64,000 nt of DNA from Schmidtea polychroa (Eukaryota). The DNA is taken from assembly GCA_044892525.1 (NCBI GenBank), contig CM097885.1, forward strand, positions 868,001 through 932,000, written 5' to 3'. Within the stretch, counting starts at the first letter, position 1. Each line of letters opens with the position of its first letter. The notes beneath the pieces are model-generated. The model saw only the letters and a program-made list of their open reading frames with translations. It ran no database searches and was not told where the DNA came from. This document shows positions 1 to 60,171 of this stretch, one piece after another. Both the position numbers and the translations under genes were made by a program.

Positions 1-3000
1 TCGAGGAAGAATGAGTCTGTATCCCCGGCTATGATATTTATTTGGCAATCGAACTGTGCTCGATATTTTGACAGTTCAATATATTGTAGTTCATACATTC
101 TAAGTTTAGATAAGTCTAGCACTGTTTGACCAATGTAGCTAGGCCTATCTAAACAAACTACATCTTTATTCAGCAAAAGGGCAATCAAATCATCAGCAAT
201 TTTAATTGAACGTCTAAATGTTGGCTTTGAAGTGTATTTAACCAATTTTTCGGCATTGTTGCACAATCTCAGATTTATTCTTTTCTTCAGATTCTCCACT
301 GTCTTGCCGTAAACACTATTATTTAAAAGTTTATAAAAATCTCTATCTAAACTATTTTGTGATTCAGCTCGAAGTTGGGTATTTGTGTTGATATAATCCT
401 TCAATATCGGCTTTTGTGTAAATTTTATTGCCCGATGTATATTGGTGACTTCCACTCCAAGGGCCATATATAATTTCAAAAGTCTCCAATGAATAACATA
501 ATTAGTTTTCGCATGATGGGTTAATAATAATTTTGGTATATTTGAATCTGGTGGACACATTTTCTCTGCTGCGACTGGGAAATCATCTAATAGGTCGTGG
601 ATATTTGACGGTATGACTAAATCAACTTCCAATGTGTATCCATAAGTTAAATTTTCTAGTTTGGAACTAATACAGTCAACTAAAATGGATAATAATTCCA
701 CTTCATTATATATCCACTCAAAATCGCTACATGGCAAGTATTGGCTTAACGCCCACCCATACAGGTTGTTTATATCGATATAAAGCAACTCTGTTTCATC
801 ATCTGTTACTGCGAAGTGTTTATTTACAAATGTGAGACCACCACGGATCCCACCCTCGAAGAAATTATACATCTCCATGTCCATCAGTAATTCCACTGGT
901 TCTTCTAAGGTCATGAGCGCAGATGCCCAAGACATTCCAGGGATTCCAAAAAAATTGAGTGGCTCGAGTCCATTATGTGCTTTTGATCTTGCTCGAAATT
1001 GTTGGAAGAAATCGGCAAGTAAAAACACATCAAGTTTTAAATAAATTTGTAAATAATCCATTAGAGTTTCGCAACTTGTTTCTTGCCATATTTGTTGCGC
1101 TATTATATACTCTTCATTTGTAACGCCTTCCCAAATAGCGGGCAATTCATATGTTGTTTCTAATATTTCCTCACTTGTGGCAAAATCATAAGGAAAAATT
1201 CCTTTGTTGTTTATGATGGTTCCAGTATTGAATACTGAACGGGTCAAAGGCAATTCGTTCAATGTTTTTACTGCATTATGTAATGAAGTATTGACAAACT
1301 GATATGAGTCAATAAATCTTATTGTAAATTTACCCAGCCATGCTATCAATGTTAAAAATTTCTCTGTGCTTGTTGGTATGCAGCTGAGACTCCAATGATG
1401 AAATTGATTGAGCCCATATTTCAAAATGTGATGTAGATCATACCCTTTCAGATTATGAAATACGATGGGTAATGTTTCTCTGATTTTCCTTTGTTGATTG
1501 CATACATTGCATGAGGCTCCGAGATATTTGCCAGTGAAATGATCATGGTCTTTCACTTTCTCTGGCATTGGCTTTTTGCACAAGTAACAATTGACAACTG
1601 TGTGGAATTGCAGCTTTTCCTGATTTGTCAAAAATTTCATTTGACAATGCCCACTTGTCTTATAATAAACCTTCACTATATTGTTGACAATATTTTCTAC
1701 ATCCATCAGAAATCTGTATACACAATCTGGTCCAATAAAATGACTATATTTCGTTGACCCAGTAAAATTATTTACCAGTAACAGCCCCGCTGCTATAGGT
1801 AAATGTTTTTGGTGTTGTCTTTCATCAAGAGGTAAAACAGCTTCGAAGTCAGCATATATAACAAAAGGCGGAGTTACCATTTTTGACCAGTCATTAAATT
1901 TTAAATCTGAGTTTTCTGGCAACGTGTATAATGTTGTGCCCAATTGGTTTTTCTTGCATAAAGCTACATGCCTGTCAAAAGCATCTTCTCTTCTAAAACC
2001 ATTTAAACATGTCTCGCACCATCTGCATTGAATACGGACTGGGCAACTATGAGTTTTTCTACAATTCATTAATCGCTGTAAATCTGGAACTGCAGTATAG
2101 TGGTATTGGCCATTCGATTCTAACAATAGTAAATACATCGGTGTAACCCCAGTTACTTTAGTCCGATGTATTATATCAATATGTGGATGTTTCATTATAA
2201 TATCCACATTATCGATATCAATCATATTTTTAGGATTGTAACTGAGGACATTGATAGCAATTCCTTCGTTATGCTTTTCGAATTTTGAAATGTCCTTCAA
2301 TTTCATTGGCATATCTAATTCATTATATACCAATTCGGATAAGAACTGTGTATAATTTTCAACATTTGTATTATCAGTAATAATGATATCTTTTTTCAAA
2401 TTGGCTAGCACACTGTATATGAAACACATATCATCTCCGTTGATCACATTTATTAATGCATTTTTATTTATTAAGGCTTTCGGAGTTGGAATATAATTTC
2501 TTCCGGATAATCTGGATATTTCGGAAATCTTAGTTATTTTGAAATTTATTTCAATTATTCTTATCAGACGCCATCCGCTTTCAAGTTCCGATCTGATATG
2601 AATTTTCTCGTGCAGCTTTTCAATACCATCTGCAATAAACTTTTCAAAATTGTTCTCAGTTACCATCACCGCTTTGTTAGAAAATCTTGATGATTGGAAT
2701 TCTCCATCCTTTTCGAAATCACATTCTATCCCGAATTGAACTTTCACAGTTTTCATCTCCTTGATTGTAGATAATAGTTTCTCAGAGAAATTTTCGGGTA
2801 GATTTATCTCATTCATGTTTTTGAACGACATTTTAATTGTTTTATGACAATTTTTCAAGTCAGATTCAATCTCGACTTCTTCAGTAGGTTCCCATTCATT
2901 AACAATCTGGAAATCATCCCATATATTGTCCTCTTCTACTATTTGTTCCGTTTCCACAGGTTCTTCCATCGGTTCTTCCACTGGTTCTTCCACTTGTTCT

Positions 3001-5785
3001 TCCACTGGTTCTTCCACTTGTTCTTCCACTGGTTCTTCCATCGGTTCTTCCACTGGTTCTTCCACTTGTTCTTCCACTGGTTCTTCCACTTGTTCTTCCA
3101 CTGGTTCTTCCATCGGTTCTTCCACTGGTTCTTCCACTGATTCTTCAATATCTTCTATCAAATTAGTTGATCCACAACCAATTTGATAATTTAAAAAATT
3201 CCTTGATTCACCTATAACGATAACATCATCATCATCAGATTCATCTATAATGATGATGTTATAATTAAGTTTTTGTTTTTTAGTAGGTACGTCTATTATA
3301 CCGTTATTAAATAATTTTTTAAAAAATTCTTTCTTATCAGATTTAAAATATGTAAGATGATCTTTGTGATCATTATAAAATATTTCATATGGCTTAGTGA
3401 AAAGAGCTTCGCAAAATGGGCATAAATAATATTTTTTATTATAATAATTTCTTAAATAGTATTTTTCCATTGCTTCATGGCATTGTTTCCCATCATGTTC
3501 TTTTGCGGTGCAACATTGTTTGTATAAATTGCCTTAAATAATTACAATTGCTTTATTATGTTTCTTTTTAAACATATTTAACAATAAACATCTCTCAAAA
3601 GTTTATATTTTTATGGGCGGAAAGGTTGATTTTGATCTTGGTTTATATAGCGAAATGCAATATAAAAAGGAATTATTTAATTTTATAATGTATTTATTTT
3701 ATTATTTTATGTTTTATGTTTTATTTATTTTTAACCATTAAATGGTTTAATTATATGGTTTAATTATATGGTTTATTTATAATATTGAATTTCATTTATA
3801 TTATCGGTAATTCATTTATCTCTATTGATTATCATTTATCTTAATTATTATTATTCCAAAATTATTAATATATTAAAATTTATAATTAAGTTAATTTGTC
3901 CAGGGTATATTCAATTATTTATTCAAATTCAAAATAAGATAAAATCAATTATAATCATTCATAAAATAAATCATTAAGTGGATGTCCTAGATGATTTGAT
4001 TTTATTGTATTTGTGTTAGTCTTTTTATTTGCCATACGTACATACATGCATCAATTTTTAATTTTTTCGAATTTTCAATTTTTTTTTTATAAATTTTAAC
4101 TTTTTATAGATTTACACTTTTAAATTTCATTGTGCATCTAAATTTATTTTTCACCTCTATACACCATAAAAATGGACAAGGGCAGCATTTAGCTCACTAT
4201 GTAAACTTTATTTAATGAGTTACAATATTATTGAATGCCCTTAGTTATTTTAAAATTGTTCAATTTTTTTTTTATCACAATTCATATTTTTGAAATGAAG
4301 TTTCATTTATACATTCATTATTTTTTATAATAAAATTCATGTTGAACGTCTTAATATAGTTAAAATATATATATATTGTCTAATAAATTTCATTTAAAAT
4401 TTGAACTTTGTACTAATTTATTATATATGGCCCTTGGAGTGGAAGTCTCAATAATTCTCAATAATTTTAAGAAATTTATTTAAATCTAAATCTAAATCTA
4501 AATATCTAAATATTTACCAATAAACATCTGATTAAATATCATTTTTTTTTACTATTTTAAATTTTCTTAAACAAAGAACTATAGAAATATGACAATTATT
4601 TAACAATCCATATACTTTTAATTTCACTTACATGAAATACTAGAAGTTTCGTGATGCAATCAAATTTTAAATTAATCTCATCTTAGTTGATTAATGTAAA
4701 AATAATATTGCAAATAAAAATTCGATTTTAAAATGAAGTTTTATTTATATTTTCATCATTTTTTTTTATAATAAAATTAAAGTTGATCGTCGTAATATTG
4801 TTAAAATAAACTAACAATAACTATATTAATATTGTCTAAAAAAATAATTTCAGTAAATATATTAACTTTGTACTTTTTTTATTTTCAGTTTATATATCAA
4901 TATATTTGTATTTATGTGATACGTATATTATTTATGCTTCAAAGGACTTGGGCAAAAATTTGAGTTGCATAAATGAACATTTTTATCTTCAAATCTGAAA
5001 TTTTTATAATACAATTAAAATTGTTAATATTATATATTGAAAATCTGAAACATCAATTGTTTTTGTAGTCATACTTTTCTTTAACAGGTAAAGTATATAA
5101 TTTCTTCACCTATTTTTCATGAAAATTGTTTTAGAAAATTATTCTCAGAGATATCAAAAGCAGAAGTTTATATTTTTTTAATTTGACATCAGTGACAGAA
5201 TTCTGTTTATTTCTGGTATAATAAATATCTTTTCTATAATTAGGTTACTTATAGTAAAAAATAATATTCCTTATCAATAATTAAAATATTGTCTAAAAAA
5301 TAATTTCAGTAAATATATTAACTTTGTACTAATTTTAATTAATAATTAATATATTACTAATTTTCATTAATTTTAAGAAATTTATTTAAATGAATTCATC
5401 TAAATATTAACATCTGATTAAATATCATTTTTTTACTAATTTAAATTTTCTTAAACAAAGAAATATATAACTAGAAATCTAAGTTAAATTTTGTAATTTA
5501 CTTACATTTTATCTTCTTTGCGAAATATTCAATAGTTCCAGCAGCACAAGCAACTGAATCATCAACTGAATCCACATTAAAATTTCCTGGAAAAGACAAT
5601 TAAAAATAAGCAATGAATTATTATTATTTAACTTTTTCGTCCATATTCGTTTGCAGGTATCGAAGTAACAAAATGTTCTTCAATTATGACACAATCGCTA
5701 TCTAGAAAATAAATATATATATATATATTAAAATGAATTAAAAAATAATGAAAATACCATTTTCGTAATCGATGTCTGTGATCAT
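1..5785 (-). CDS. Protein-primed family B DNA polymerase (Polinton/Maverick-type), subfamily A; apparently intact, spliced, runs off the left edge. Predicted exons 5785-5758, 5701-5633, 5586-5506, 3532-<1
   Basis: Manual translation is open from 3532 to 1 (absent from the ORF track, presumably because the stop lies outside the window). Motifs: VIYADFEA (ExoI), CYLC..DHDHFTGKYLGASCNVCN (EndoVII-like), FHNLKGYD (ExoII), YLKLDV (ExoIII), YIDINNLYG (pol A), KLLNNSVYGK (pol B), AGDTDSFF (pol C). The upstream exons are bounded by GT..AG and stay in frame; they are predicted only. Confidence 0.9.
2945..3145 (-). repeat. 12-bp coding tandem repeat (EEPV/EEQV/EEPM) in the pPolB-A N-terminal region
   Basis: GGTTCTTCCACT-type units in frame with pPolB; the overlapping small ORFs are its alternative frames. 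Confidence 0.9.
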
Positions 5786-5978
5786 TATTTCTAAAGTTAT
5801 TTTGTAATAATGAAAATGTTTATAATGAAAAGCATACTTTATTCTCCAGCCAATTAAAATTAAGATAGAAAATATATTACGTTGTGGTATTTTAAAATTA
5901 TTTTGTGAAAAGTGAAATAAATATGTGCTTAAATTAACTATGATCATAATTACATATTTTTATTTAAAATAAATAGAT

Positions 5979-6529: not shown

Positions 6530-7053
6530 TTTAATTTTTGACCTTGATTTGACCTTAAAATTAGGGGTAGGGGGTAGGGGGTTGACCTTAAAATTTTCTA
6601 TGACCTTAAAATTTTCTATGACCTTAAAAATAGGGGTAGGGGGTAGGGGGGTTGACCTTAAAATTTTCTATGACCTTAAAAATAGGGGTAGGGGGTAGGG
6701 GGGTTGACCTTAAAATTTTCTATGACCTTAAAAATAGGGGTAGGGGGTAGGGGGGTTGACCTTAAAATTTTCTATGACCTTAATAATAGGGGTAGGGGGT
6801 AGGGGGGTTGACCTTAAAATTTTCTATGACCTTAAAATTTGGGAAAATTAGACTTTGGCCTCAGAAGTTGACCTTAAAATAGTCTAAAATCGACTTTGAC
6901 CTCAGAATTTGACCTTAAAGTGGCTTAAATTGACCTTAAACTGTCCTGAAAATGACATTGACCTTAAAATTTGACCTTAAGTTGACCTCAAAATTTTCTA
7001 TGACCTTAAGTTGACCTTAACGATGAGTCATCGTGCGCTCACTTCTACCTACT
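6530..7053 (-). repeat. Left terminal region of element A: TGACCTTAA array, ~52-bp G-rich tandem units, putative terminus AGTAGGTAGAAGTGAG at 7053
   Basis: Five TAGGGGTAGGGGGTAGGGGG units (~6562-6810) and many TGACCTTAA copies. It ends in ...CTCACTTCTACCTACT, resembling the CTCACTATATACTACT termini elsewhere, and abuts a truncated MULE end. Confidence 0.65.
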
Positions 7054-8778
7054 TAAACATCGAAAGCATTTTTATTATTTAAAAAAAAAAATTGTATGTA
7101 ATTGATGTAACAATTTTAACATTTGTTGACTTTTAAAACTATTAGGCCGCTTGAAGTTCTTAATTATGGGCTAAACCTCTTAAATAATCTAAAATGTTTC
7201 GAGTTCCATATGACTCTACTATAGACTTGATTCTTCTGGCAGTTTCGATATAAATTCTTTTTGATGGTGGTGGAATAATTCCTGACGTTAATTGTTCCAA
7301 TTTCAATCGAGTCAGGCCTTCTTCTTTCTTTAAAATTTTAAGAAAACGCCAGAAATTTGGGTTACTTGATGCCATCAATGAACTAAAAGATCGATGCCAT
7401 CCTTCAATCGAGTTATTTGTTTTAGGAAGATCATCGATTGATGCTTCGTAACAATTCCAAAGCGATATCGGAACTCTTGGTGATCTTCTTCCTGTTGCAG
7501 ATCTTGTTGGTCTTCCAATCCACTGATCCTCGATATAATCGATAAGTGGACAAAGCAATTGTTCGTTTTCTCTGAAGAAATCAGAGTCTAAAAGTACATT
7601 GAAACACTCAATGACATCTTCTTCTGGCACAAAAGCTAAAGCTGCAAGTTGTCGCAAATATAAAGAAAAATCAGGATCCTGTATATCCTTATATTTGTCG
7701 CTAATTGGACTGTTTCTTTGTATTTCTCTCCATATACATTGAGAAAAATGGAAGAAACAACCACGAATTCTTGTATCGGGGAAGCAATCTTTGATTGAAT
7801 TAATAATTGCTTGTTCAAAATCCGATAACACAGATACTGGTGATGGAGCAGGCTTTATTTGCTTTAATTGGCGAAAAACTTTAGTATAAGTTTCTTGTCT
7901 TTTGTTAGGCAAAAGAGCATAAACCAAAGGTATCACTGTTTTATCGATAATACAATGTACCGTAAACATCTGAAAAAATAAACTTGGAGCAGTTTTAAAT
8001 GTTCCATCAACGTATAAATGCGGAGATGATACTAATGTATCAATTAATCGACTTGTGCTGAACATCACAATTCTATCTGCGCCATCATTTGAATCGTAGA
8101 TTACAAAATCATCTCCAATTGCAGTTTTTCTTAAGTTTTCGGGTATAAATAAATCCGAAAGTGATGTCGGCGAAGGCAATATCCCTGATGCTTGATTTCT
8201 TTGTCTTCTGATAGTTCTTTTGATCGAATCTATCTTCGGCAACTTGCTACAAACAGCTTGAGACGATGTTGACGTTGCCGCTGCAATAATTTGAAGCGGT
8301 GTTTCGGTGGAAGTTTTTGAACTTTCTTTTATTTCAGAATAAAGCTCTTTAGCTTTAATAACGGCAACTTTTGGAACATGATTATGTTCTCCTATTTCTT
8401 TTTCCACTTGATTATCAACAGTGTGGCATCTTCCTTTGCACTTAAATGTCAAATATTCCACACATTTCCAATAAGTTTTTTCGTTATGTTGCCTATCTTT
8501 TTGATAAAGAAAACTATTATATAAAAGTTGATTAACACCTTTTTGACTTTTAATAAATTTAATCTCCATTTTTATAATTGGAATCAATATTTAGCTAATT
8601 TAATAATTTAACTATGAAGAAATGAAAGGAAACGGAAACAATTTAAAGGGACTTTTTATTAATTTTTCGATATTTTGTTTTCGATATTTTTGTTTTCGAA
8701 ATTTTGTCTATTCAATATTTTATTTTCGGTGTTTTTGTTTTAGTTTTTTTAATTTTCGGTATTTTGTCCGGGATTCCC
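7054..8778 (-). mobile_element. Mutator-like (MULE) DNA transposon; 5' end intact, 3' TIR truncated
   Basis: The 5' end GGGAATCCCGGACAAAATACCGAAAA is followed by internal AAAATATCGAAAA-type repeats (8660-8778). Only AAACATCGAAA remains at ~7055. Confidence 0.8.
7160..8569 (-). CDS. MULE transposase with N-terminal FLYWCH zinc finger
   Basis: FLYQK..YWKC..CKGRC..HNH, YVDGTFK, SDFEQA, GCFFHFSQC, TNNSIEGWH. First ATG at 8569 (the ORF track starts at 8587). Confidence 0.92.
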   Translation of the reverse strand: MEIKFIKSQKGVNQLLYNSFLYQKDRQHNEKTYWKCVEYLTFKCKGRCHTVDNQVEKEIGEHNHVPKVAVIKAKELYSEIKESSKTSTETPLQIIAAATSTSSQAVCSKLPKIDSIKRTIRRQRNQASGILPSPTSLSDLFIPENLRKTAIGDDFVIYDSNDGADRIVMFSTSRLIDTLVSSPHLYVDGTFKTAPSLFFQMFTVHCIIDKTVIPLVYALLPNKRQETYTKVFRQLKQIKPAPSPVSVLSDFEQAIINSIKDCFPDTRIRGCFFHFSQCIWREIQRNSPISDKYKDIQDPDFSLYLRQLAALAFVPEEDVIECFNVLLDSDFFRENEQLLCPLIDYIEDQWIGRPTRSATGRRSPRVPISLWNCYEASIDDLPKTNNSIEGWHRSFSSLMASSNPNFWRFLKILKKEEGLTRLKLEQLTSGIIPPPSKRIYIETARRIKSIVESYGTRNILDYLRGLAHN

Positions 8779-11700
8779 GTTATATATTTCTATTTCATTT
8801 GTAAGTTGCCCTTCACATTCAAAGTATGTTTTGCAATTATGATATAGGTCCTTAAACATATTAAGTGTATCATTATTAATGCCTAGTTCTGTTAGTGTTT
8901 GCCATATAAGTTGATGTGGCACACTTCCGAATGCATCAGCGAGGTCTAACCAGATTATGTTAATGTCGCCATTATTGCGAATTGCTCTCTCTTTAATAAG
9001 TGTAAGTACAGTGTTATGCTCAGCGCAGCCATCAGGTATGCCTATAGCCTTTTGGTTTATACTAATCAGGCCTTCAGTTCTTATCCATTCAAGTAGTCTT
9101 ATATTAATTATGGCCGAAAAAATCCTATAAGCTGTGTCAAGTATTGCAAGGGGGCGCCAGGAGGAGACTTCAAAGCTGGAGTTTTCTTTGTGGGGCTAAA
9201 TGATCAATTTAGTCTTAAAATCTTTCCATCTAGTAGGAGTTTTAATATTTCTAAGAATGTTATTATAGAGGGAACATAAAAAAGATAGTTCAGGGTCAGA
9301 TTATTAATATTATCCTTAATCTCACTAATTGTTATTATTTTATTAGTAATTTGTTCGGGTTCTTTGGTTGAGTTGTTGTATTGTGGGTTTTCAATATTTA
9401 TTAAGGGTTTTTTAAAGCTATCTATTATTTTTTCACTCGATGGTGGAATAATTTGGACAATGTTATTAAGTATTTTATTCAGAGTTATTTTAGGTTTCTT
9501 ATTATAATTGTATCTTATTTGGTAGGTCAGTTCATTTTGTTTTGTTTTGTTGTTGATATTATGTATACTTAAGGGTTTGTCATATTTGTTAGGAAAAATA
9601 GAGGCATGTATTTTAGATATCTCATTTAGACCTATTTCAGGGGTTATGTCATTGTTATTTAATTGTATATTGAGGTTGTTAAAAAATTCTTATATTTATT
9701 AATATTGTCGTTGGGTAGTCTTTCAGTTATCGTTTTAATAATAATTTCTCTTAATTGTGTTCTAATTAGGTTAATGTTAGGTGAAGAGATTATGCTATTG
9801 TTCTTATTAAGGCAAAGTGCGAAGTGACAGATATAAAAACCTGAGTCGTTTATAGAGCACGTGGGGTATTGTTGTTCTGTAGCTGTTATAGTTATAGGTG
9901 ATATTATATTTTGCATACTAAGTATCGTGTTTAATATATCCTTAACTATTGTTTCATGTTTATTAATGCTGTGTCCGCAGGTAGGGTCTATAAGGGTAGC
10001 TAGTTTTCTAGATTTATATAAGTAAAATAGTGCCCAAGCATGGCCTGTTAAGTTAAGTGGGAAGATGATTTCATTCCATTCAGGGTATTTATGAAATGGA
10101 AATGATTCAAAAAATGTTTTAAGGTTTTTCTTTATTAAGGATATACCTATGAAATTATCGATAATTATAGTGGAGTGGAGTTTGGTAAAGGCGTGTAGGT
10201 ATAGTTTAACAGTATGCTGATTTAGTCAATCTAATCCTATGTCGGCATTAACCAGTGGTATATCATCTGGTCTTGTCTTGTCGTCTTTTTCTATTGGCGT
10301 GACACCTTTATGTTTATTAAAATGGTCAAGTTTGGTGTGTGTTTCTATTGTTGCTCCGCAGTAGCATGTGATTTGGTTAGTATTACATATTTTGTTTTTG
10401 TGCTTTGTGCTAATATGTTTATCAATCTCGTCTTGTGTGGATCTTACTGTAAGTTTATTTATGCATGGTTTCCTAAGTGATTTATTATTGCAGTTTATGG
10501 TACCTTCCTCATTTATTGTTAAGGTATGTTCCTTAAGCTTAATGTTAATCATTTCTCTAGATAAAGGTACCGCTAAGTCTTTATGAGTTTCATTAATGTG
10601 TTCAGTGATAGTGTTCAATAAAAAGTTACATTTAATGTTTGTGTTACGTTGTGAACATAAAACGCATTGGAAGGTGTCATATTTGTTGATTTCGGTTGTG
10701 TGTACTTCTAATCTATTTTGTTAGTTGGTCTTCGAATTTAGTTGCACCTATCTTACCTTTACAATTGGGGTAGTAACATATTAGGTAACCATCACCTCTT
10801 AGTTTAAAAATTGGTTCCCTTAGTGTGCGTAGAGCAAATTTATTGGGTTTTAGGACTGGGGTGTTTATTTTTTCAATTTCGTTTGATTCTAGTATTGGTT
10901 GGAGATCAGTTTTATTTATAATGGGGCTAGCATTAGTACACGTAGTGTTGATGTCATCTTTTGGGGTGGGGATTAATATGTTATTATGTGTTATTGTGGT
11001 TGTTTTTCCTAGTACATCAAGTTTATTTACGATTTTAAAAGCTTCGAATGTTTGCGTATTCATGTATGATGGTTTAGTGTCATGGATATTAGAGTCGTTA
11101 CTTGAAGTGTTCGATTGTGTGGGTGTGTTTTCAAAAAGATCTATACTCGAGTCTATTTGTGGGTGAATATTGCTCTTACTGTAGATCATAGGGCTGGGGT
11201 TTACAGAGTTCGTAAGCGGGCTATATGATATAGTTTCAGTCGTTGTTTGTGGTAGCATTTTAGTATTTATATTTCCATCAGAAAGTTCAGAGGATTCAGA
11301 GTCAGAGATTTGGATATCGTCAATGTCTGGCACCACAGTATTCGTTGGGTGTTCAGTTACGTCGTCATTAATTATATCAGATAGTATAGGAGATTCAGAG
11401 TCAGAAGTGTTTTGATTAATTATGTTAGTTTTAGAGTTATCATTAAGGTCGAGTTCATTATTTGCATCAGGAAGTATGTCAGATTCAGAGTCAGAGGGGT
11501 TACTGCAGTCAAGGTCTACATTACGGCTATGAAGGATATCTTTGTCAATATCAGGAGTTTCACGAATGTCAAGATTAGTAATATTAATTTCAGGGTCAGA
11601 TTCATCGTTTTTATCACTGTCAGAGGGTATACCAGGTATTTGGTTGGAAAACTTATAGCAGGCAGTATCTTTATTCACGTCATCTTGATCATCAATGTCA

Positions 11701-13610
11701 ATTAGGTTTGTAGTTAGGTCATTTGGGGCTGCAATTTTCCCTAACTGGTTCAAGGGTATTTTATTAATATGGTCATATGTCCATGAAAGATTCAGAAAAA
11801 TGTGGCCTTTTGGATGTATTTATGTTGCGTTTTGGTAATATATTTTTTGAGATAGTGCTTATTTGGGTTGAGATTTGAGAGCTTAGGTTTAATGGTCACA
11901 GTTGTAGTTGATTTATTTTTGTAGATGAGGTGAGTGGGTATTTCTATTTAGGGGTATTTCTATTTAAATAGTCATATTTAAACAAACTAATTATTTTTAA
12001 AAAAATGGAATCGCCATTTTGTTTAATGAAATTTAATAAATCGTTTTTTAAATTATTTCGAAATATATTTTTTATTTCTGGTTGGTATTTTTCTTGATTA
12101 ATTTTTATAATTTCATCTATCCTATCTATTAAAAAATAATCATAATTTTCAATTTGTTTGGGGTCTAGGTCATAGATCTCTTTATTATTCAAAACATTGT
12201 TATTGTTATTTTTATTATAATTACTAATAATGATATCTTCACTACACTTATTATAATCGCAATTCTGATCATAATTACCGTTATTTATCTTTTTCGAGGA
12301 AGGGCATATTGTTGTATATTTTTTTTCATAGTATCGAATCGGGTTAACTTTGTTTTTAATGGCTTTTTCGTCATTTAATCTTTCATTAATCGGGTTCCGA
12401 GAGGGGCATTCCGTCTCATTGTCGGTGTGGTGTTTTGGTTTACCGTAATCAGGAGTCGATTTCTTTTTATCAGTAATATATCTGCAAATACCATTATTTA
12501 TTTTCTTAAAATCATTAAATAATTGGTTATCGAATGGGGCTCTGATTTTTTCAAATCTTTCGCAGATAGTCCTAATATTCCGATCTCCATTCGAATTGTT
12601 GATCTCATAATTAGATCCAAATAAAAAGCCAGTTTTCTGCCCAGTGCTATGAATGTTATCTAGAAGTGATTCTTCTAAGCACTGGGAAACGGCGGGAGCA
12701 TTAGTACAAAATTCAAGTTTTTTAAATTGCATAAAAATTTTCATTGAATTCTGAGGAGGCATTCCAAACAGATCGGGACAGATTTCGTAGTTATAGTAAT
12801 TGTTAGGAGAGGCAGTTAAGGCTTCTGTCTGATTAGTTTATATGCAATTATGAGCACTAAAATTTTTCGTTTAAATCTATCCTTAATAGGATAGAGTTTA
12901 TAATAAATAGGGTTTATGAAAGAATGGTCAACGTCATCGGTTACAGAGTTTCTTTGTAAAGAAGCCTCTATGATATCATGAGAGTAATTATGGCTTACTG
13001 AGTCTAAGGAGATGTGAGAGTTAGTTGTTTCGACGATAGAAGTATCGTTTAATGGAGAAGGTTTGAAGGATATGGGATTTTTCATAGAGTCATTATCCAT
13101 ATTAGAGTGTGAAAGGTGGTTAGAGTATTTCTTTGAGATGTTGGACTCATCTTTAATGGGAGTTGAAGTAATATTTGGGAGATAGAGATTATCAAGATTA
13201 GTATTTGATGAGGCACTGCTCGATAGTTGGACATCATCGCAGTCTTCATCATCAAGATCACAGGTATTAGTTTTATTGGTAGGAGGATTTAAGTAAAATG
13301 GAGTATTATTATCCGACGAAGCTTTAAGGACTGGAGTGATAGGAGTTGTAGCTGAGATTGAGAGTATTGGCCTTGACAAGGTGTTTGTTGTCAAAAAGTC
13401 TCTTGATAATCGAGCAGATGAGATAACAGGTGTTTTTTTATGAATATTTCTAATATAATTAGATTTTGATAATTTAATATTAGAATTAGTGAATTTAAAA
13501 GATTTTAATATTTTATTTAGGCTTGAAGATTTAATGGTATTCATCTTTTTAGGTGAATTGGGGATATCGCGGTTATGGTCTATAAAGGTGGTGATTGGTT
13601 TTGAGAAGTG
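8779..13610 (-). mobile_element. Degraded NeSL/R2-superclade non-LTR retrotransposon (S/D-rich N-terminus, zinc fingers, Ulp1-like domain, partial RT)
   Basis: RT motifs SSWRPLAILDTAYRIFS, QKAIGIPDGCAEHN and IIWLDLADAFGSVPH (8780-9260). Ulp1-like EIIFPLNLTGHAWALF..IDP..NDSGFYIC (9800-10220). C/H zinc-finger motifs 10226-10790. Several stops and frameshifts. Confidence 0.85.
11944..12762 (-). CDS. Unknown K/N-rich ORF inside the retroelement 5' region
   Basis: 272-aa open frame with no recognisable domain; contains the conserved hairpin at 12632-12700. Confidence 0.3.
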   Translation of the reverse strand: MPPQNSMKIFMQFKKLEFCTNAPAVSQCLEESLLDNIHSTGQKTGFLFGSNYEINNSNGDRNIRTICERFEKIRAPFDNQLFNDFKKINNGICRYITDKKKSTPDYGKPKHHTDNETECPSRNPINERLNDEKAIKNKVNPIRYYEKKYTTICPSSKKINNGNYDQNCDYNKCSEDIIISNYNKNNNNNVLNNKEIYDLDPKQIENYDYFLIDRIDEIIKINQEKYQPEIKNIFRNNLKNDLLNFIKQNGDSIFLKIISLFKYDYLNRNTPK

Positions 13611-13614
13611 GGAT

Positions 13615-14060
13615 AAAAGATTAAATTTTTAAATTAAAGTAAATATTGGTTCTAAATTTTAAATTAAAGTTATTAAGGTCCAAATTTTAAAATTAAGTAA
13701 TCAATGGTAAAAAATTAAAGTTAAATAAGTAAATTAAAGTAAGATTTTTAAATTTATTAACAATTGAAATTTTTTAATGAAAGTTTTTATGAAATAATTT
13801 TTTATGAATAATTTTTAATAGAAATTTTAATGAAATATTTTTCAATGGTAATTTTTAATGGAAATGTTTATGAAATAATAATAAAAAAAATAATAATAAT
13901 ATATCAACCAAATACTATACAACACATAAAAAATTAACTAAACACATAAAAATAACTAGACACATAACAAAACATATAAACATTAACTAGACACATAAAA
14001 AACATAAAAATTTACCAAACAAATAACAAATGTATATATATAAACTTTTATTTAATAAAA
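13615..14060 (-). repeat. Right-end arm of pPolB subfamily B (3' flank plus ~29-bp AT-rich array)
   Basis: Reverse complement of 37470-37890. Confidence 0.8.
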
Positions 14061-17056
14061 TTAGTCCTCATCAGACAAAATAACGTCATCGATATCGATA
14101 TCATCTTCTCCAAAATCTTCTCCAACATCTTCAATAAGTTCTTCCTCATCTTCTCCAACATTTTCATCAAATTCATCTCCAACAATTTCTCCAACATTTT
14201 CTCCAATATTTAATTCACTTAATCTTACATGCCCATTTTTTCAGCAGCTTCAGGGAAATCTTCCAACTTCTCATTTAGCTCAGAAGAAATTACAAGATCA
14301 ACTTCAAGAGTGTATCCATAAGACAAAGAATCAAGATTTAAATTCCTACATTCATCCATTTTTAAATCAAATCCATCAAGAACCCAACTAAATTCACCAC
14401 AAGGTAATGATTGACTTAAAGCCCAACCATAAAGATTATTAATATCTATATAAAGTAACTCGGTGTTCTCATCGGTTTTTACGTAATGCTAATTCAAAAA
14501 AGTAATACCGCCTCTTATTCCACCCTCATAAAAGCTAAACATTTCGTTTTCAGTTATGAGCTCAATTGGTTCATTTAAAGACATTAATGCAGAAGACCAA
14601 GACATACCTGGAATTCCGAAATAATTCAATGGTTCCAATCTATTGTGAACAATAGATTTCATCCGAAACTGATGAAAGAAATCAGCCAAAAGAAAACAAT
14701 CAAGTTTTAAGTAGATCATCATATAATCTAATAAAGTTAGGCAATTAGTTTCTACCCAAATCTCCTGAGCTTTTTCATACTAAAGCTCAGTAACACCCTC
14801 CCAGATTGGTGGTAATTCATAAGTAGTTTGGAGAATATCTAAAGATGTAGCGAAATTATAAGGGAAGATTCCTTTTTCAGAAACTATAGTGCCAGAAAAA
14901 GCAGAATTAGTAAAAGGCAAAGAATTCAAAGTTTTGACTGCTTTAGCTAAAGAATCATTAACAAATTGATAAGAATCAATGAATTGATAAGAATCAATTC
15001 TTTTGCCTAAATGCGCAATCAAAGAAATAAATTTTTCAGTCGTTATTGGGATGCAACCTAAAGTCCAATTTTTAAATTTATTTAATCCGTATTTAAGTAT
15101 ATGATGCATATCGTATCCCTTCAAGTTGTGAAATACGATAGGCAAAATTTTATTTATTTTCTTATTTTTGTTACATGTGCTACAAGCTGCACCCAAATAT
15201 TTCCCCGTAAAATGATCGTGATCTCTAACAGGATCAACGATAGATTTCATACAAAGATAACAAACAGATGCACTAACAAATTGACGTTGTTCAATTTTCG
15301 TTAATTTAATCATAGGTTTCCTACCCATTTTATAATAAAAAGGAAGAACCTTATTTAATGCTATATCCTCTATAGCACTTAAAAAACTCTCGACGCAATC
15401 TAAACCTATGAACTGTTGATAAGATTTAGATCCGTCAAAGTTATTTACAAGTAAAAGACCAGCAGATATTGGCATGTGTCGTTGGAAATGAACATTATCA
15501 GAAGGTAAAATAGCCTCAAAATCGGCATAAACTACAAAAGGAGGAGTTACTGTTTTCGACCAGTCAGTAAACTGCAATAATTTATTTTGAGGGAAAGTGT
15601 AAAGAGTTGTTCCTAATTGATTACGTTTACATAATATTTCATGTTTTTCCAGTGCGTGTTTATACCTAAACCCATTCAAACACCGATGGCACCATAATGA
15701 ACGTATGCGTGTAGGACAACTAGTGTTGATACCACAATTCAGTAACCTATTTAAATTACTTATAGCAACGTAATGGAAATTGTTTCCTTTATTTAAAAGT
15801 AGTAAATTAATTACAGTTCCATTTAAAACTTTGGAACGATGTATAATATCTAAATGTGGATGTTTTAATACATAATTATCAGTTAATTGTTTGCTATTAT
15901 CATATGAAAAAACATTAATTATTAAACCCGAATTTTTAGATTCAAATTTCCTAATGTCTTTTAATTTCATAGGTAATTCTAACGGGTCGTATACTAAGTC
16001 AGATAAATTATAACTCGATGTCCTATTTCTAGCATAACTACTAACTTCATCATATTTTAAAATAGCTAAAATGCTATATAAAAAACATGAATCATCAGTG
16101 TTTTTTATATTAATTAAACAATATTTATTTTTTAGATAAGTAGGTGTTTCAATGAAACTCCTACCACTTAATCTACTTAACCTACTTATTTTTGTTATGG
16201 TGAAATGTATTTCAGTAATATTTTATATATTCCAACTGCTTCCTAACTCAGTAATATTAGTAATTTTCTCATTTAATTCTTTAATGCCTTCATCAAAAAA
16301 TGATGCAGTTAAAGGCTTTGCATAATTTGAGATATTATAAACCTTTATTTCCCCGTCTTTTTCAAATTCGATTGTTATTCCAAATTGAATTTTGACGGAG
16401 CCTTATTCGTTAATAATATCTCGTAATTTTATTATTAGTTGTTCAGGAAATATTACTTCTTTTATATTTAAGTCGCTGTATTTAAGCTTAATATTTGATG
16501 GGTACCTCTTAAATCTCTTTGTACTGTCGATACATTTCCACTTATTTGTATTATATTTAATCCATCCCAAGAATCAAAGGAAGTGAATAATCCATCATTG
16601 GATTCAACAACCAATCCATCATTGGATTCAACAAAAGGCAATCCGACCTGGGATTCAACAAAAGACAATCCGTCCTGGGATTCAACAACCAATCCATCAT
16701 TGGATTCAACAAAAGACAATCCGACCTGGAATTCAACAAAAGACAATCCAGCCTGGGATTCAACCTCTAATCCGACCTGGGATTCAAAAGAAGTATCTAA
16801 TTTAATTTTTTTATTTGTATTATTTTTTTCTATAGTTGAGGGTCTTTAAAAACACTATCTTTTTTAAAATTAAATCTATCTAAATGATTTTTATGTTTAT
16901 TATAAAAAACGCTATATGTTACAGGGTCACTAGTCTTACATACGGGACATATAAAATAAGTTTTATTATAATATTTTTTCGTGTAATAATTCTCCATTAT
17001 GGAATGGCAATTATTATCATGTTCTTTCGATGAACAATAATTTGGATAAAGTATAC
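14061..17056 (-). pseudogene. pPolB subfamily B, exon 4, with stops/frameshifts and deletion of polymerase motifs B and C
   Basis: ORFs 14780-15970 and 14489-14722; FPEAAEK is joined directly to the acidic tail; splice acceptor at 17057-17058. Confidence 0.9.
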
Positions 17057-19950: not shown

Positions 19951-20580
19951 AATAAATAAAAAATTAAATAAAAAATTATTGTTGATTATAGTTTATCATT
20001 AATTATTTTTTTGTTTGGGGTTGTAAAGAAAATACTTTGACAACACAAGATTTTTAAATTTATTAACAAAAAGTTGGAATAATAGTCAGTAATTGAGAAT
20101 TGAAATTTTTTAATGAAAATCTTTAATAGAAATGTTTTAAGATAATTTTTAATGAAAATTTTAATGGAATAATTTTCAAAGATAATTTTCAAAGAAATTT
20201 TAATTGATTAATTTTTTAAGTAAATGTTTTTAATAAAATTTTTTTTATAGATTAATAATAATAATATTATTATTTCAACCAAATACTATACAACACATAA
20301 AAATAACTAGACACATAACAAAACATATATATATTAACTAAACACATAAAAATTAACTAGACACATAAAAAACATAAAAATTACCAAACAAATAAAAAGA
20401 ACAAATGTAAAGATATAAACTTTTATTTAATAAACTCAGTCTTCATCATTATCAATATCATCTTTTCCAACATCTTCTCCAACATTTAATTGACTTAATA
20501 TTACATACCCATATGATAAACTAGTATTTTTCCCCACCCAAACCCTTTTGTCATCTTTGTTAGTTAGTTATTTATTTAAA

Positions 20581-21899
20581 TTAGTCCTCATCAGACAAAA
20601 TAACGTCATCGATATCGATATCATCTTCTCCAAAATCTTCTCCAACATCTTCAATAAATTCTTCCTCATCTTCTCCAACATTTTCATCAAATTCATCTCC
20701 AACAATTTCTCCAATATTTTCTCCAACAATTTCTCCAACATTTTCGCCAATATTTAATTCACTTAATCTTACATGCCTATATGCAAGACTAGTATTTTTC
20801 CCCACCCAAACCCTTTTGTCATCTTTGTTAGTTAGTGCTATTTTATTATTTTTAATTGTAAAAATTTGATGATTTTTGTTTGTTAATTTTGTTTGAGGAA
20901 TCGAAAAAATTTGATTAGTTTTATAACAATCCAGGTATGACTGATGTTTTATGTCACTACCTTTCAATGTTACACCTTTAGCCTTTTTTGTTTCCTCATC
21001 ACCCAACAAGCTTTAACACTTGGGTCTAAGAAAAACCCATTCCCTATATTTAAGACCTTTATTCTCGTCTTTGAACTTTCCAATGACAGAATCAAGGTTC
21101 TTACTATATAAGGAATGACAACTATTGTAATCGAAGTATGTAATAAATTATCTCGAATCATTGCAGGTAAAAGAACCTCAAGTTTACAGTTAATGACTTC
21201 GAGGAAAAAAGAGTCTGTATCACCTGCAACGATATTAATTTTATTAACAAATTGATAAAAATCAATGAATCTTAAGCTTATTTTGCCTAAATGCGCAATC
21301 AAAGAAATAAATTTTTCAGTCGTGATTGGGATGCAACCAAAAGTCCAATTTTTAAATTTGTTTAAACCATATTTAAAAATATGGTGCATATCGTATCTCT
21401 TCAAGTTGTGAAATACGATAGGCAAAATTTTATTTATTTTCCTATTTATGTTGCATGTGCTACAAGCTGCACCCAAGTATTTCCCAGTAAAATGATTGTG
21501 ATCTCTAACAGGATCGACGATACATTTCAAACAAAGGTAACAAACAGATGCACTAACAAATTGACGTTGTTCAATTTTTGTTAATTTCATCATAGGTTTG
21601 CTTCCCATTTTATAATAAAAAGGAAGAACCTTATTTAATGCTATATCCTCTATAGCACTTAAAAAACTCTCGACGCAATCTAAACCTATGAACTGTTGAT
21701 AAGATTTAGATCCATCAAAGTTATTTACAAGTAAACGACCAGAAGATATTGGCATGTGTCGTTTGAAATGAACATTATCGGAAGGTAAAATAGCCTCAAA
21801 ATCGGCATCAACTACAAAAGGAGGAGTTACTGTTTTCGACCAGTCAGTAAACTGTAATAATTTATTTTGAGAGAAGGTGTAAAGAGTTGTTCCTAACTG
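20581..21899 (-). pseudogene. pPolB-B internally deleted derivative (Exo/EndoVII region fused to motif C and tail)
   Basis: YQFVN|KINIVAGDTDS junction; frameshifted; duplicate of 61997-63298. Confidence 0.9.
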
Positions 21900-22600
21900 A
21901 TTTTTTATGTGTTTAGTTAATGTTTATATGTTTTGTTATGTGTCTAGTTATTTTTATGTGTTTAGTTAATTTTTATGTGTTGTATAGTATTTGGTTGAAA
22001 TAATAATATTATTATTAATCTATAAAAAAAAATTTCATTAAAAAAATTTACTTAAAAAATTAATCCACTAAAATTTTCGTTGAAAATTATCTTAAAAAAT
22101 TTTTATTAAAGATTTTCATTAAAAAATTTCAATTCTTAATTACTGACTATTATTCCAACTTTTTGTTAATAAATTTAAAAATCTTACTTTAATTTACTTA
22201 TTACTTTAATTAAAAAATTTGAAACTTAATTTACTTATTTCAGCCCATTGATTACCAAATATATCTATTAATTTACTTTAATTCAAAAATCTTAGCCCAT
22301 AATTTACTATATTTCAATTTTTAGACCCTTAATTTACTGTAATTCAATTTTTGAACCATCATTTACTTTAATTTTAAATTTAAGAACCATAATTTACTTT
22401 AGTTTAAAAATTTGAACCTTAATTAACTAATAAAAGTTAAATTATCATTTTCAATTAATATTTTACAAACATAAAATTACAATATTTGAAATTCTAAATA
22501 TCTCTATTAACATGTTTGCAATTAATTTTAAAAATACAAAAATTTTACAAAATTTTCAAATTGAATATTAAATATTTTTTTAATTTGCATTTGATAATGT
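21900..22600 (+). repeat. Right-end arm of subfamily B, inverted relative to the adjacent pPolB fragment
   Basis: Inverted copy of 20050-20350; direct duplicate of 63300-64000. Confidence 0.85.
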
Positions 22601-31300: not shown

Positions 31301-33416
31301 AATTATAATCATAATTTTCTTTAATTTAACCCTTTATTTACTTAATTTAGCCCTTGTTTACCGAATATAGAAGTTTAAAATATAGACCATTGATTACTTT
31401 AATTTAAAAATGTATCCCTTAATATACATAATTTCCATCTAAAATTATTTCAAAAAAATTTTTTTTCTAAAATTGTCATTGAAAAATTTTCATAAAAGTT
31501 TTCATTTAAAATTTTCATTGAAAAATATTTCATAAAAATTTTTTTTAAAAATTATCTTAAAAATTATTCCATAAAAATTTCCATCTAAAATTACTTAAAA
31601 AATTATTTCATAAAAATTTTCATTAAAAAATTTCAATTCTCAAACACCTTCTATTATTTTGTTAATAATTTTAAAATACCGCAATGTAATATATTAATTT
31701 TTTCCTAACCTTCCTTGATTTTGATTGGTTAGAATTTGTTCCTATAAACAATAATAATCTATAAACAATAATAATCTATAAACAATAATCAATCATTAGT
31801 CACATTTAACAAATAATTAACCTTTAAAAATGAGTTCTTTAATAGAAAACGTTATGAATGTTCGAGAAAAAATTCAGGAATTTGGTAAATTTTAATTTAT
31901 TTATTAATTAATTTATTAATTAATTTAGATAATATTAATGAAGACAATTTAAAATCGAAGATTAAAGGAAATTTGAAAAGAAAAAGTAAACATAATTTTT
32001 AATTTATTAATTTAATTAATTAATAATTTAGGTAATAAGAATAAAGAGAAAAAATATGTCAATGTTTCAATAAATCGAAATGAAAATTTACAATGTAAGT
32101 ATTGATTACTTTTTATAATTTAAAGGAAATTTAATATAATTTTTTATTTAAGTAAATGTTAATATTTTTAATTTAGTAAATTTTTATTTTTTAGTAAATA
32201 AAATTTGTAAAATAATAATAATTTGCAAATTTTTGCTTAAACATTTATTAAAATCTTTCATTTAAATTATATATTTTTAATAAATTTTTATTTTATAGGT
32301 ATACTTTATCCAAATTATTGTTCATCGAAAAAACATAATAATAATTGCCATTCTATAATGGAGAATTATTACACGAAAAAATATTATAATAAAACTTATT
32401 TTATATGTCCCGTATGTAAGACTAGTGACCCTGTAACATGTTGCGTTTTTTATAATAAACATAAAAATCATTTAGATAGGTTTAATTTTAAAAAAGATAG
32501 TGTTTTTAAAAGACCCTCAACTATAGAAAAAAATATAACAAATAAAAATATTAAATTAGATACTTCTTTTGAATCCCAGGTCGGATTAGAGGTTGAATCC
32601 CAGGCTGGCTTGTCTTTTGTTGAATTCCAGGTCGGATTGTCTTTTGTTGAATCCAATGATGGATTATTCACTTCCTTTGATTCTTGGGATGGATTAAATA
32701 TAATACAAATAGGTGGAAATGTATCGACAGTACAAAGAGATTTAAGAGGTACCCATCAAATATTAAGTTTAAATACTAGCGACTTAAATATAAAAGAAAT
32801 AATATTTCCTGAACAACTAATAATAAAATTACGAGATATTATTAACGAATTAGGATCCGTCAAAATTCAATTCGGAATAACAATCGAATTTGAAAAAGAC
32901 GGGTAAATAAAGGTTAATAATATCTCCAATTACGCAAAACCTTTACCTGCATCATTTTTTGATCAAGGCATTAAGGAACTAAATGAGAAAATAACTAATA
33001 TTACAAAGTTAGGAAGCAATTGGATTATAAAAAATATAACAGAAATCCACTTCACTATAACAAAAATAAGTAGGTTAAGTAGATTAAGTGGTAGGAGTTT
33101 CATTGAAACACCTACTTATCTAAAAAATAAATATCGTTTAATTAATATAAAAAACACTGATGATTCATGTTTTTTATATAGCATTTTAGCTATTTTAAAA
33201 TATGATGAAGTTAGTAGTTATGCTAGAAATAGGACATCGAGTTATAATTTATCCGACTTAGTATATAACCCGTTAGAATTACTTATGAAATTAAAAGACA
33301 TTAGGAAATTTGAATCTAAAAATTCGGGTTTAATAATTAATGTTTTTTCATATGATACTAGCAAACAATTAACTGATAATTATGTATTAAAACATCCACA
33401 TTTAGATATTATACAT

Positions 33417-57700: not shown

Positions 57701-58660
57701 TGAATTTCATGTGGATAGAATGAATATTTAAAAATTTTAAGTTAGTTCTAAGATAAATTTAATTAATTTCTTGATAATTGGATGCATTTTTATTGATTGG
57801 TTTTTTAATTTTAAATAAAAATTATTTTTAATGACAGTTAGGTTAATAATCACGTGATAGGATATGACTTTGTAATAATATTTTTTTTCATATATTTTCT
57901 AAGAATTTCATTTAGATTTATTTAAAAATTTAAAGTTTTAATGACGATTTTAATTGAATTTCTTGATAATTTGTTAAATTTTAAATAAAAATTAATTTTT
58001 TTTAATGACTGTTAGGTTAATAATTAAGTAATTGGTTTAATTTTAGATGACTTTGTAATGCATTTGACTAAATAATTTTTTTCAATAATTTTCTAAGAAT
58101 ATTAACACATTGATGAACTTTTTTAAAAAAACATAAGCTAAGAAACCAGTTAACCTTATCAAGAACTTTAAATTTACTTGATAATTTACAGAAATAATAT
58201 ACAAAATTTAATTTACAGAAATTATTTACAAAATAATAATACAGAAATTTATGATTAAGTTTGCTTTTATGAACAATCAATATATATCATTTCTAGTTAG
58301 GTATTTGATAGGTGAAATATTTGTAGTAAATAATAAGTTTATTATGTCTTTGTTACATAACTCGACTTTAGCGTCAAAATGTGTTTTTAAAATAAATTTT
58401 AATTTTAAAATACCGCAATGTAATATATTAATTTTTTCCTAACCTTCCTTGATTTTGATTGGTTAGAATTTGTTCCTATAAACAATAATAATCTATAAAC
58501 AATAATCAATCATTAGTCACATTTAACAAATAATTAACCTTTAAAAATGAATTCTTTAATAGAAAACGTTATGAATGTTCGAGAAAAAATTCAGGAATTT
58601 GGTAAATTTTAATTTATTTATTAATTAATTTAGATAATATTAATGAAGACAATTTAAAAT
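50168..58660 (+). repeat. Tandem duplication, ~4.1-4.3 kb units (50168-54313 and 54314-58660)
   Basis: Paired ORFs 50916/55093, 52386/56607 and 53875/58251; the junction lies inside pPolB-B exon 2. Confidence 0.92.
54930..55331 (+). pseudogene. pPolB-C 3' fragment followed by a right TIR ending at 55956
   Basis: IGKFKDENKG..LRPKCY; duplicate of 50750-51154. Confidence 0.85.
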
Positions 58661-60171
58661 CGAAGATTAAAGGAAATTTGAAAAGAAAAAGTAAACATAA
58701 TTTTTAATTTATTAATTTAATTAATTAATAATTTAGGTAATACGAATAAAGAGAAAAAATATGTCAATGTGTCAATAAATCGAAATGGAAATTTACAATG
58801 TAAGTATTGATTACTTTTTATAATTTAAAGGAAATTTAATATAATTTTTTATTTAAGTAAATGTTAATATTTTTAATTTAGTAAATTTTTATTTTTTAGT
58901 AAATAAAATTTGTAAAATAATAATAATTTGCAAATTTTTGCGTAAACATTTATTAAAATCTTTCATTTAAATTATATATTTTTATTAAATTTTTTATTTT
59001 ATAGGTATACTTTATCTAAATTATTGTTCACGAAAAAACATGATAATAATTGCCATTCTATAATGGAGAATTATTACACGAAAAAATATTATAATAAAAC
59101 TTATTTTATATGTCACGTATGTAAGACTAGTGACCCTGTAACATGTAGCGTTTTTTATAATAAACATAAAAAACATTTAGATAGATTTAATTTTAAAAAA
59201 GATAGTGTTTTTAAAAGACCCTCAACTATAGAAAAAAATAATACAAATAAAAAAATTAAATTAGATACTTCTTCTTTTGAATCCCAGGTCGGATTAGAGG
59301 TTGAATCCCAGGCTGGATTGTCTTTTGTTGAATTCCAGGTCGGATTGTCTTTTGTTGAATCCAATGATGGATTGGTTGTTGAATCCCAGGTCGGATTGGT
59401 TGTTGAATTCAATGATTGATTATTCACTTCCTTTGATTCTTGGGATGGATTAAATATAATACAAATAGGTGGAAATGTATCGACAATACAAAGAGATTTA
59501 AGAGGTACCCATCAAATATTAAGTTTAAATACTAGCGACTTAAATATAAAAGAAATAATATTTCCTGAACAACTAATAATAAAATTACGAGATATTATTA
59601 ACGAATTAGGATCCGTCAAAATTCAATTCGGAATAACAATCGAATTTGAAAAAGACGGGGAAATAAAGGTTAATAATATCTCCAATTACGCAAAACCTTT
59701 AACTGCATATTTTTTGATCAAGGCATTAAGGAACTAAATGAGAAAATAACTAATATTACAAAGTTAGGAAGCAATTGGATTATAAAAAATATAACAGAAA
59801 TCCACTTCACTATAACAAAAATAAGTAGGTTAAGTAGATTAAGTGGTAGGAGTTTCATTGAAACACCTACTTATCTAAAAAATAAATATTGTTTAATTAA
59901 TATAAAAAACACTGATGATTCATGTTTTTTATATAGCATTTTAGCTATTTTAAAATATGATGAAGTTAGTAGTTATGCTAGAAATAGGACATCGAGTTAT
60001 AATTTATCCGACTTAGTATACGACCCGTTAGAATTACCTATGAAATTTAAAGACATTAGGAAATTTGAATCTAAAAATTCGGGTTTAATAATTAATGTTT
60101 TTTCATATGATAATAGCAAACAATTAACTGATAATTATGTATTAAAACATCCACATTTAGATATTATACAT
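58547..60171 (+). pseudogene. pPolB-B 5' part with the three introns, truncated
   Basis: Same exon/intron layout as the 31830 copy; stop at 59417. Confidence 0.88.

Follow-up and report, generated by a model that had tools for sequence, protein, structure and literature searches.

A predicted three-intron leader on a Polinton-type DNA polymerase gene of Schmidtea polychroa, with a last splice that would supply the first cysteine of a putative zinc module

The window analyzed here, a stretch of 64,000 nucleotides of Schmidtea polychroa DNA (assembly GCA_044892525.1, contig CM097885.1, positions 868,001 to 932,000 of the forward strand), is an AT-rich nest of repeats in which MULE, hAT and reverse-transcriptase elements lie among many polymerase pieces of a family that we call B. 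At its start, on the minus strand, lies a copy of another family, A, whose polymerase shares 55–61% protein identity with that of B. Copy A is a gene for a Polinton-type protein-primed DNA polymerase, with an open frame of 1,177 codons (3533-3) that runs off the window start.

For the region upstream of this frame, an earlier account made from the letters alone (hereafter, the sequence-only reading) had proposed three small exons, and the coordinates and phase 1 of all three of the introns that it named are borne out by the DNA pattern. On the minus strand, predicted exon 1 (5785-5758, 28 nt, beginning with ATG) is followed by intron 1 (5757-5702, 56 nt), exon 2 (5701-5633, 69 nt, with an acidic-hydrophobic word and a basic end), intron 2 (5632-5587, 46 nt), exon 3 (5586-5506, 81 nt, its last base being the first base of a cysteine codon) and intron 3 (5505-3533, 1,973 nt), after which the long terminal coding exon 4 begins at 3532; each predicted intron has GT-AG ends and is of phase 1. 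It is from this pattern that we infer splicing of the leader: the reading frame stays open once the three GT..AG introns are removed, and GC content is 0.32–0.36 in the exons as against 0.09–0.20 in the introns. Both exon 2 (5680-5695) and a linker further downstream (3215-3290) of the minus-strand gene contain acidic-hydrophobic words, which we take to be of the SUMO-interacting type, and short basic words, presumably of the nuclear-signal type; the B leader has a basic word only, without an acidic-hydrophobic one.

Exon chains were scored with a splice-site matrix trained only on the 16 introns of relatives, the last donor being fixed and the first two phases left free. The chain given in the sequence-only reading scored best in both A and B, and its score was reached by none of 300 shuffles in either family; any open chain at all arose in only 20 of 300 shuffles for A and 6 of 300 for B. 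This control is lenient, since shuffling destroys the AT-rich blocks and the last donor was held fixed. Under the same matrix, the intron 1 acceptor ranks first of 85 AG and its donor tenth of 71 GT, and the donor and acceptor of intron 2 rank 15 of 71 and 25 of 85, respectively.

Contigs from 4 of 12 sequencing runs, no run being on record as RNA, were compared over 3160-5965 and contain no joint at any predicted intron; in the two runs guessed to be RNA, exons 1–3 are without cover, which weighs neither way. Variation was scored in runs X2 and X3, which belong to one study and whose kind is not on record; the differences listed are 12 of the 18 indels and 40 of the 51 substitutions. None of the listed differences falls at a splice dinucleotide or at the ATG; nine of the listed indels lie in intron 3, and the only exonic one is of 3 nt, in exon 4. 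This sparing of the splice sites and start codon lends weak support to the gene model. Four of the five listed changes in exons 2–3 alter a residue, as against none of three in the zinc module described below, and we see no sign of amino-acid constraint in the small exons. One contig each in X2 and X3 tracks the start of intron 3 to window position 5502 and then passes into unrelated sequence; another family, or a rearranged copy, may share that intron end.

The sequence-only reading had also claimed the same four-exon layout for the divergent family B, and we see it in two B copies. One of them (31664..32540, plus strand) comprises a promoter block, three leader exons (31830-31884, 31929-31985 and 32032-32094) and exon 4 from 32299, and is broken further downstream; the other (58400..59240, plus strand, leader from 58547) has the same layout and is frameshifted early in exon 4. 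Exons 1–3 of these copies measure 55, 57 and 63 nt, and the introns 44 or 32, 46, and 204 or 205 nt. All B leader introns are of phase 1 in the two copies, with junction codons G/AT, A/GT and T/GT (the slash marks the splice), and the contrast between T/GC at the last junction of A and T/GT at that of B is present in the DNA as claimed. The small exons were said to have diverged beyond recognition; this holds for exons 1 and 3, which do not align between A and B (shuffle p 0.14–0.99), but not for exon 2, where a weak similarity is detectable (global z 3.0, p 0.0045; local p 0.038; six tests). With exons 1 and 3 unalignable, introns 1 and 2 of A and B offer no demonstrable positional homology.

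Upstream of the start codon, A carries a 32-nt block, a likely promoter element (5871..5902, minus strand), that is identical to B at 31664-31695 in 30 of 32 positions (score 54 vs a maximum of 39 in 1000 shuffles) and that is absent, at 4 mismatches, from 19 close loci. Between the block and the ATG lie, on the minus strand, ATTGG (5850..5854, 69 nt before the ATG), which we take to be an inverted CCAAT-type box, and TATAAA (5819..5824, 39 nt before the ATG), and the order 32-nt block, ATTGG, TATAAA, ATG is identical in A and B. One relative, L003, matches B's CCAAT-region word at 19 of 20 nt and has two leader introns. As equal phase is weak evidence (see below), we base the argument for a common origin of A and B on the shared promoter block together with the shared cysteine junction. 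Summed contig depth at 5869-5901 is near 7,600–11,000 in X2/X3 vs about 100 around it, a value that is not copy number; many other contigs therefore carry the A/B promoter block. Still further upstream of A, twenty TNAAGGTCA words, which we take to resemble nuclear-receptor half sites, stand at 6539-7020 (window total 35 vs 2.4 expected), and the relative L017 also has AGGTCA repeats before its TATA box.

Exon 4 opens with a predicted zinc module (3303..3532, minus strand; from an eight-sequence alignment and models), in which a CCHC-type pattern (split Cys, C7, H12, C17) is followed by CxxC..H..H (C37, C40, H55, H58); C7, H12, C17, C37, H55 and H58 are invariant in all eight alignment rows. 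The split codon encodes the first cysteine of a C-x6-C-x4-H-x4-C motif. Without splicing, the frame of A reads an in-frame stop just upstream of 3533 and then Gly instead of Cys, so that the full motif arises only if an exon whose last base is T is joined by a phase-1 splice. We consider the spacing of this split cysteine the strongest argument, at the level of the DNA, for intron 3 and an upstream start. The 5' region was searched in 8 of the 19 close metagenome loci, and 6 of these (L001, L002, L004, L005, L011 and L017) carry the Cys/His module. In all six, the module is contiguous just after the start codon, a cysteine lies 5–7 residues before the invariant second cysteine, matching the exon 4 start of A and B, and the start codon stands 2–7 codons before the aligned cysteine, with no coding leader; in four of the six, a TATA word precedes the start. 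Three proteins (P0013, P0014 and P0022) begin, at the protein level only, like these leaderless relatives. The sequence-only reading had called the structure functional, which we restate as a strong probability: since the frame without the last splice reads a stop and Gly, and since the restored cysteine occupies a conserved motif position, the leader is very probably functional.

Structure prediction, which had been named as a check on the N-terminus, resolved an N-terminal module, a disordered linker and two domains within the first 529 residues of exon 4 (58-row alignment; mean pLDDT 77.5). The compact N-terminal module spans about residues 14–75. Of the two roles that had been suggested for the Cys/His-rich N-terminus, zinc binding is plausible as a prediction, given the invariant ligands; the region is a separate module and not the terminal protein, as the latter maps downstream, to residues 227–336. 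For the zinc module itself, Pfam gave no match better than E 0.023 (8 members), and a fold search with its 80 residues gave at best Z 2.5 and a Foldseek E of 1.3, zinc fingers being among the weak rows. Residues 227–336 (2523..2852, minus strand), the predicted terminal-protein (D1) domain, match the little fingers of Y-family polymerases (PolIV, Z 8.1, rmsd 2.4, 92 aligned). The loop that precedes the last strand contains a Ser-Gly pair whose serine, Ser318 (2579-2577), is invariant in 58 rows; this residue fits the description of the terminal-protein linking Ser/Tyr as standing between helix 2 and the last strand (PMC11071308, section 7). Residues 350–486 match many OTU chains (best Otu2, Z 7.3, rmsd 2.9, 93 aligned) and are predicted to form a vOTU protease domain (2073..2483, minus strand) with Cys369 and His477, both invariant in 58 rows. 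The exonuclease and family B polymerase motifs (3..1856, minus strand) follow, exonuclease I–III and polymerase A–C all six lying in exon 4, with an endonuclease VII-like insertion near 1589. A Foldseek search of the 529-residue model against the PDB returned nothing at E 0.001, and the best viral fold matches are adintovirus, MELD and bidna-like polymerases.

The acidic linker, predicted to be disordered, contains a 12-nt minisatellite (2950..3145, minus strand) and the GxG word QIGCG (3171..3185, minus strand), a candidate protease site. The pattern [MILQ]xGG or [MILQ]xGxG is found upstream of the terminal-protein domain, often 12–20 residues before it, in 26 of 34 clade proteins vs 3.3 expected, in a count from which 7 clade rows with fewer than 25 upstream residues and 2 outgroup rows were dropped, in which Q joined the pattern after the data had been inspected, and in which the family B word was read by eye. 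The M/I/L-only pattern, presumably that of the adenovirus protease, is found in 11 of 34 clade proteins vs 2.7 expected, and in 2 of 15 outgroup rows vs 0.45. The mavirus protease is described as cutting GG/X and GX/G (PMC6048507), and the GG or GxG word before the terminal protein may likewise be a protease site.

Relatives were drawn from a protein search (579 matches among 8,000 candidates; among the 120 matches listed, about 59 form a closer group) and from a metagenome scan (77 loci kept, 19 of them at 40–63% identity). Viral contigs yielded 5 distant loci with an alignment as query and no match with a single-sequence query; prokaryotic genome contigs yielded relatives of 24–35% only. The contigs of the close relatives have a few name prefixes in common and may come from a small number of hosts. 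In a FastTree analysis of a 337-residue stretch from 80 sequences, with rows covering fewer than 250 residues omitted, A and B form one group (0.825) that adjoins P0001–P0004 (0.864), and deeper nodes are weak; forms that start directly at the cysteine fall into another clade (0.992) or, in the case of P0013, outside both. Alignment A3 omits the B copy at 17054, whose chosen stretch contains a stop. The leader was probably gained on the A/B branch or slightly earlier, and we call this gain likely rather than shown because of the 0.825 support for A and B and the weak deeper nodes. What had been termed an ancestral structure can thus be upheld for the A/B ancestor, from which the leader was probably inherited, but not for the clade, since the six relatives that start 2–7 codons before the cysteine are without a coding leader.

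Conserved phase had been offered as an argument for common origin, and here the relatives speak otherwise: all 16 introns predicted in five of them are of phase 1, at other positions, so that phase 1 is to be expected in this clade and its agreement between A and B counts for little. For two of the 16, splice sites of a different phase within 12 nt would also keep the frame. For 8–12 independent positions and a phase-1 share of 30–40%, values that are estimated or assumed, the chance that all are of phase 1 is 7e-4 or less; most genomes are reported to have an excess of phase 0, and mobile domains to favour phase 1 (PMC3488318). We regard the presence of introns in this clade as unambiguous, given the positions shared by L003 and L007: each has two short GT-AG phase-1 introns (718-760 and 1133-1176 in L003; 291-333 and 706-753 in L007) that interrupt the conserved protein at the same two places, one at the boundary between terminal protein and OTU and one inside OTU, and A lacks both. 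L006 has tandem exon-intron units that are 80% alike. Some relatives lack the zinc module and others have it once or twice; a phase-1 intron borders it on the upstream side in A and B and on the downstream side in L011 and L017.

As to the elements themselves, A has the repeat block at 6539-7020 on one side, and its other end lies outside the window. No integrase, packaging ATPase, capsid or protease was found among the 12 window ORF proteins scanned, in a window that A runs off, and tblastn with 549 ORFs of 117 loci detected no integrase, ATPase or capsid gene in the window; the distant relatives L020, L042, L064 and L078 (about 30% identity) carry rve and/or A32 ATPase genes (30 of 103 ORFs scanned). 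Family B is present in several broken copies. Inverted repeat blocks, 70–80% alike, lie on both sides of B with no other ORF between (56802-57441 vs 39464-39781, 37650-37894 and 13625-14236). Family B is possibly a polymerase-only unit; the same idea for family A was dropped as unproven. Two internally deleted B derivatives, 99% alike (20050-22600 and 61999-64000), have an inverted copy of the 3' flank joined to mid-polymerase and resemble copy-back products. Ends of a third family (29849-29859, 31289-31299, 51768-51778 and 55945-55955; AGTAGT or GTAGT-ATATAG, minus strand) stand a few hundred bases after the polymerase C-terminus, one of them abutting a polymerase fragment at 29860; we take the AGTAGT form to be a typical Polinton/Maverick end. 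Among the surrounding elements, the immediate upstream neighbor of A is a MULE transposase whose frame is open over 476 codons (7160-8590); it lies within a broken non-LTR retroelement (8749-13628) that contains a piece of Ulp1-like protease, and a hAT-like transposase of 619 codons (33629-35488) interrupts a B polymerase copy.

We consider the gene model with its three-intron leader likely to be correct, and the explanation that we favor, with good though not full confidence, is a spliced leader on a Polinton/Maverick-type polymerase whose last splice supplies the first cysteine of the zinc module. Transcription would begin from a host-type promoter about 40–110 nt upstream of 5785, and the transcript would be spliced through three phase-1 introns, the last splice giving the first cysteine of a likely zinc-binding module. 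The resulting protein would comprise, in order, the leader, a CCHC plus C2H2-type zinc module, the acidic linker, terminal protein, vOTU, exonuclease and polymerase. The main jobs of the leader would be to supply the start codon and to restore the cysteine, its residues being little constrained. Everything upstream of the terminal protein may be an accessory piece that can be clipped at the GG or GxG word, with leader, zinc module and linker removed together, and whose make-up differs within the clade as phase-1 exons are gained, lost or duplicated.

A simpler course would be for transcription to start inside what we call intron 3 and for translation to start at the conserved Met at 3470, the small exons being an artefact of AT-rich DNA. 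In the nearest proteins, P0001 and P0003, annotation places the start at the corresponding Met; the matrix from relatives gives the acceptor at 3532 a low score (rank 47 of 85); and the clade TATA word STATATAAAC, which lies 36–42 nt before the ATG in L001–L004, occurs once in intron 3 (3641-3650). However, the codons upstream of Met 3470 are coding, since C7, H12 and C17 are invariant in 8 of 8 rows, and the exon chain was matched by none of 300 shuffles in two families. The TATA word is not above chance (2 found vs 0.82 expected; 18 of 100 shuffles reach 2), none is present in B's intron 3, and as a second promoter about 110 nt before exon 4 it was rejected on that ground; we hold a leaderless gene to be very unlikely. 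Somewhat less improbable, though still unlikely, is a real leader of which our model is incomplete, either because the 2-kb intron contains an additional or alternative exon or because exons 1–2 are spliced in another way. Donors 1 and 2 are only middling, strong donor-like sites inside intron 3 come near the chosen score of 8.3 (4631, 8.4; 4815, 6.7), and the intron holds 15 open symmetric exon candidates. The best of these, with a GC content of 0.24, scores only 3.2 vs 14.4 and 9.6 for the model exons, and among the 12 candidates shown, one would keep the cysteine if spliced last; B's intron 3 is only 204 nt long, and part of the extra length of A's consists of internal duplications. The further exon for which the sequence-only reading had left room in this intron has thus not turned up in convincing form.

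That A is a domesticated host gene, which gained its introns after mobility had ceased, would accord with a frame intact over 1,177 codons where the B copies are broken. Yet the same layout is found in family B, which is multi-copy and scrambled, A itself sits in a transposon nest with a repeat block upstream, and relatives on unrelated contigs also carry introns, and we give domestication hardly any credence. The spliced leader may, on the other hand, be exactly as modelled and owe its uniform phase not to exon shuffling but to the mode of intron insertion, through a fixed target or an intron-making element. This alternative, which concerns the evolutionary part only, we consider quite possible, if short of probable. 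A phase-1 intron inside the OTU domain of L003 and L007 is not explained by exon shuffling, and introners have been described in dinoflagellate eupolintoviruses (PMC12166617); the tandem exon-intron units of L006, and a zinc module bounded by phase-1 introns upstream in A/B and downstream in L011/L017, speak against it.

A broader view, which we put forward as a tentative and rather doubtful one, would extend the spliced leader to a clade-wide system of phase-1 cassettes before the terminal protein, in which exons that encode leaders or zinc modules can be inserted, lost or copied, and which would form a protease-removable adaptor like the pro-region of adenoviral pTP. Family B might then be a minireplicon with a polymerase as its sole gene, which either serves full elements or borrows from them.

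If the leader is spliced as modelled, elements that are often treated as intron-free would here depend on host splicing, and dependence on spliceosomal introns would tie them to nuclear transcription. As intact vertebrate Mavericks have been described as intronless, annotation based on open reading frames would truncate or discard the polymerases of this clade. In the closest database entries, the protein begins only beyond the first zinc motif, and studies of protein priming depend on a correct N-terminus. The uniformity of phase 1 bears on how genes of mobile elements gain introns, and the conserved GG or GxG word bears on the maturation of a fused terminal protein.

The spliced leader does not define a new kind of system. 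The polymerase pPolB of Polintons/Mavericks (PMC11071308) shares with A the domain order, a little-finger-like D1 with a Ser-Gly loop, and the vOTU Cys/His; A differs in that its D1 is preceded by a predicted zinc module and spliced leader, and the words 'intron', 'splic' and 'zinc' do not occur in the main text of that paper. Vertebrate Mavericks have the same type of polymerase as A (PMC8097293), and intact ones are reported there to be intronless, with Kapitonov and Jurka 2006 cited in agreement; in contrast to these elements, no integrase, ATPase or capsid genes and no target duplications are seen beside A in the part that the window covers. We found no description of a spliced Polinton polymerase leader in the literature, where intron annotations could stand in supplements, and no spliced Polinton polymerase in the portions covered of PMC8502044, 10.1101/2023.08.22.554363, PMC12220804, PMC11296320, PMC7851563 and PMC5718144. 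As in A, the adintovirus PolB combines OTU and PolB (PMC8502044), and the best viral fold match is Drosophila-associated adintovirus 2 (E 1.7e-18). The Alpha adintovirus PolB is defined by OTU plus pfam03175; OTU is present in A, PF03175 is not matched by our query at E 0.05, yet is listed for many close relatives, and A may be of either the Alpha or the Beta class.

The adenovirus pre-terminal protein is trimmed by the viral protease. The adenovirus E2B mRNAs for pTP and polymerase, as described in PMC11304566, are made by joining three short exons at the 5' end to one long terminal coding exon. This likeness is one of analogy only, pTP and polymerase being separate proteins that share a leader there, whereas A is one fused gene with all three introns within the coding region, and with relatives that have no leader. 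The spliceosomal-type introners of dinoflagellate eupolintoviruses are described as recent transposon insertions (PMC12166617); in contrast, the A/B introns are short and AT-rich, are kept across 40% protein divergence, and are all of phase 1.
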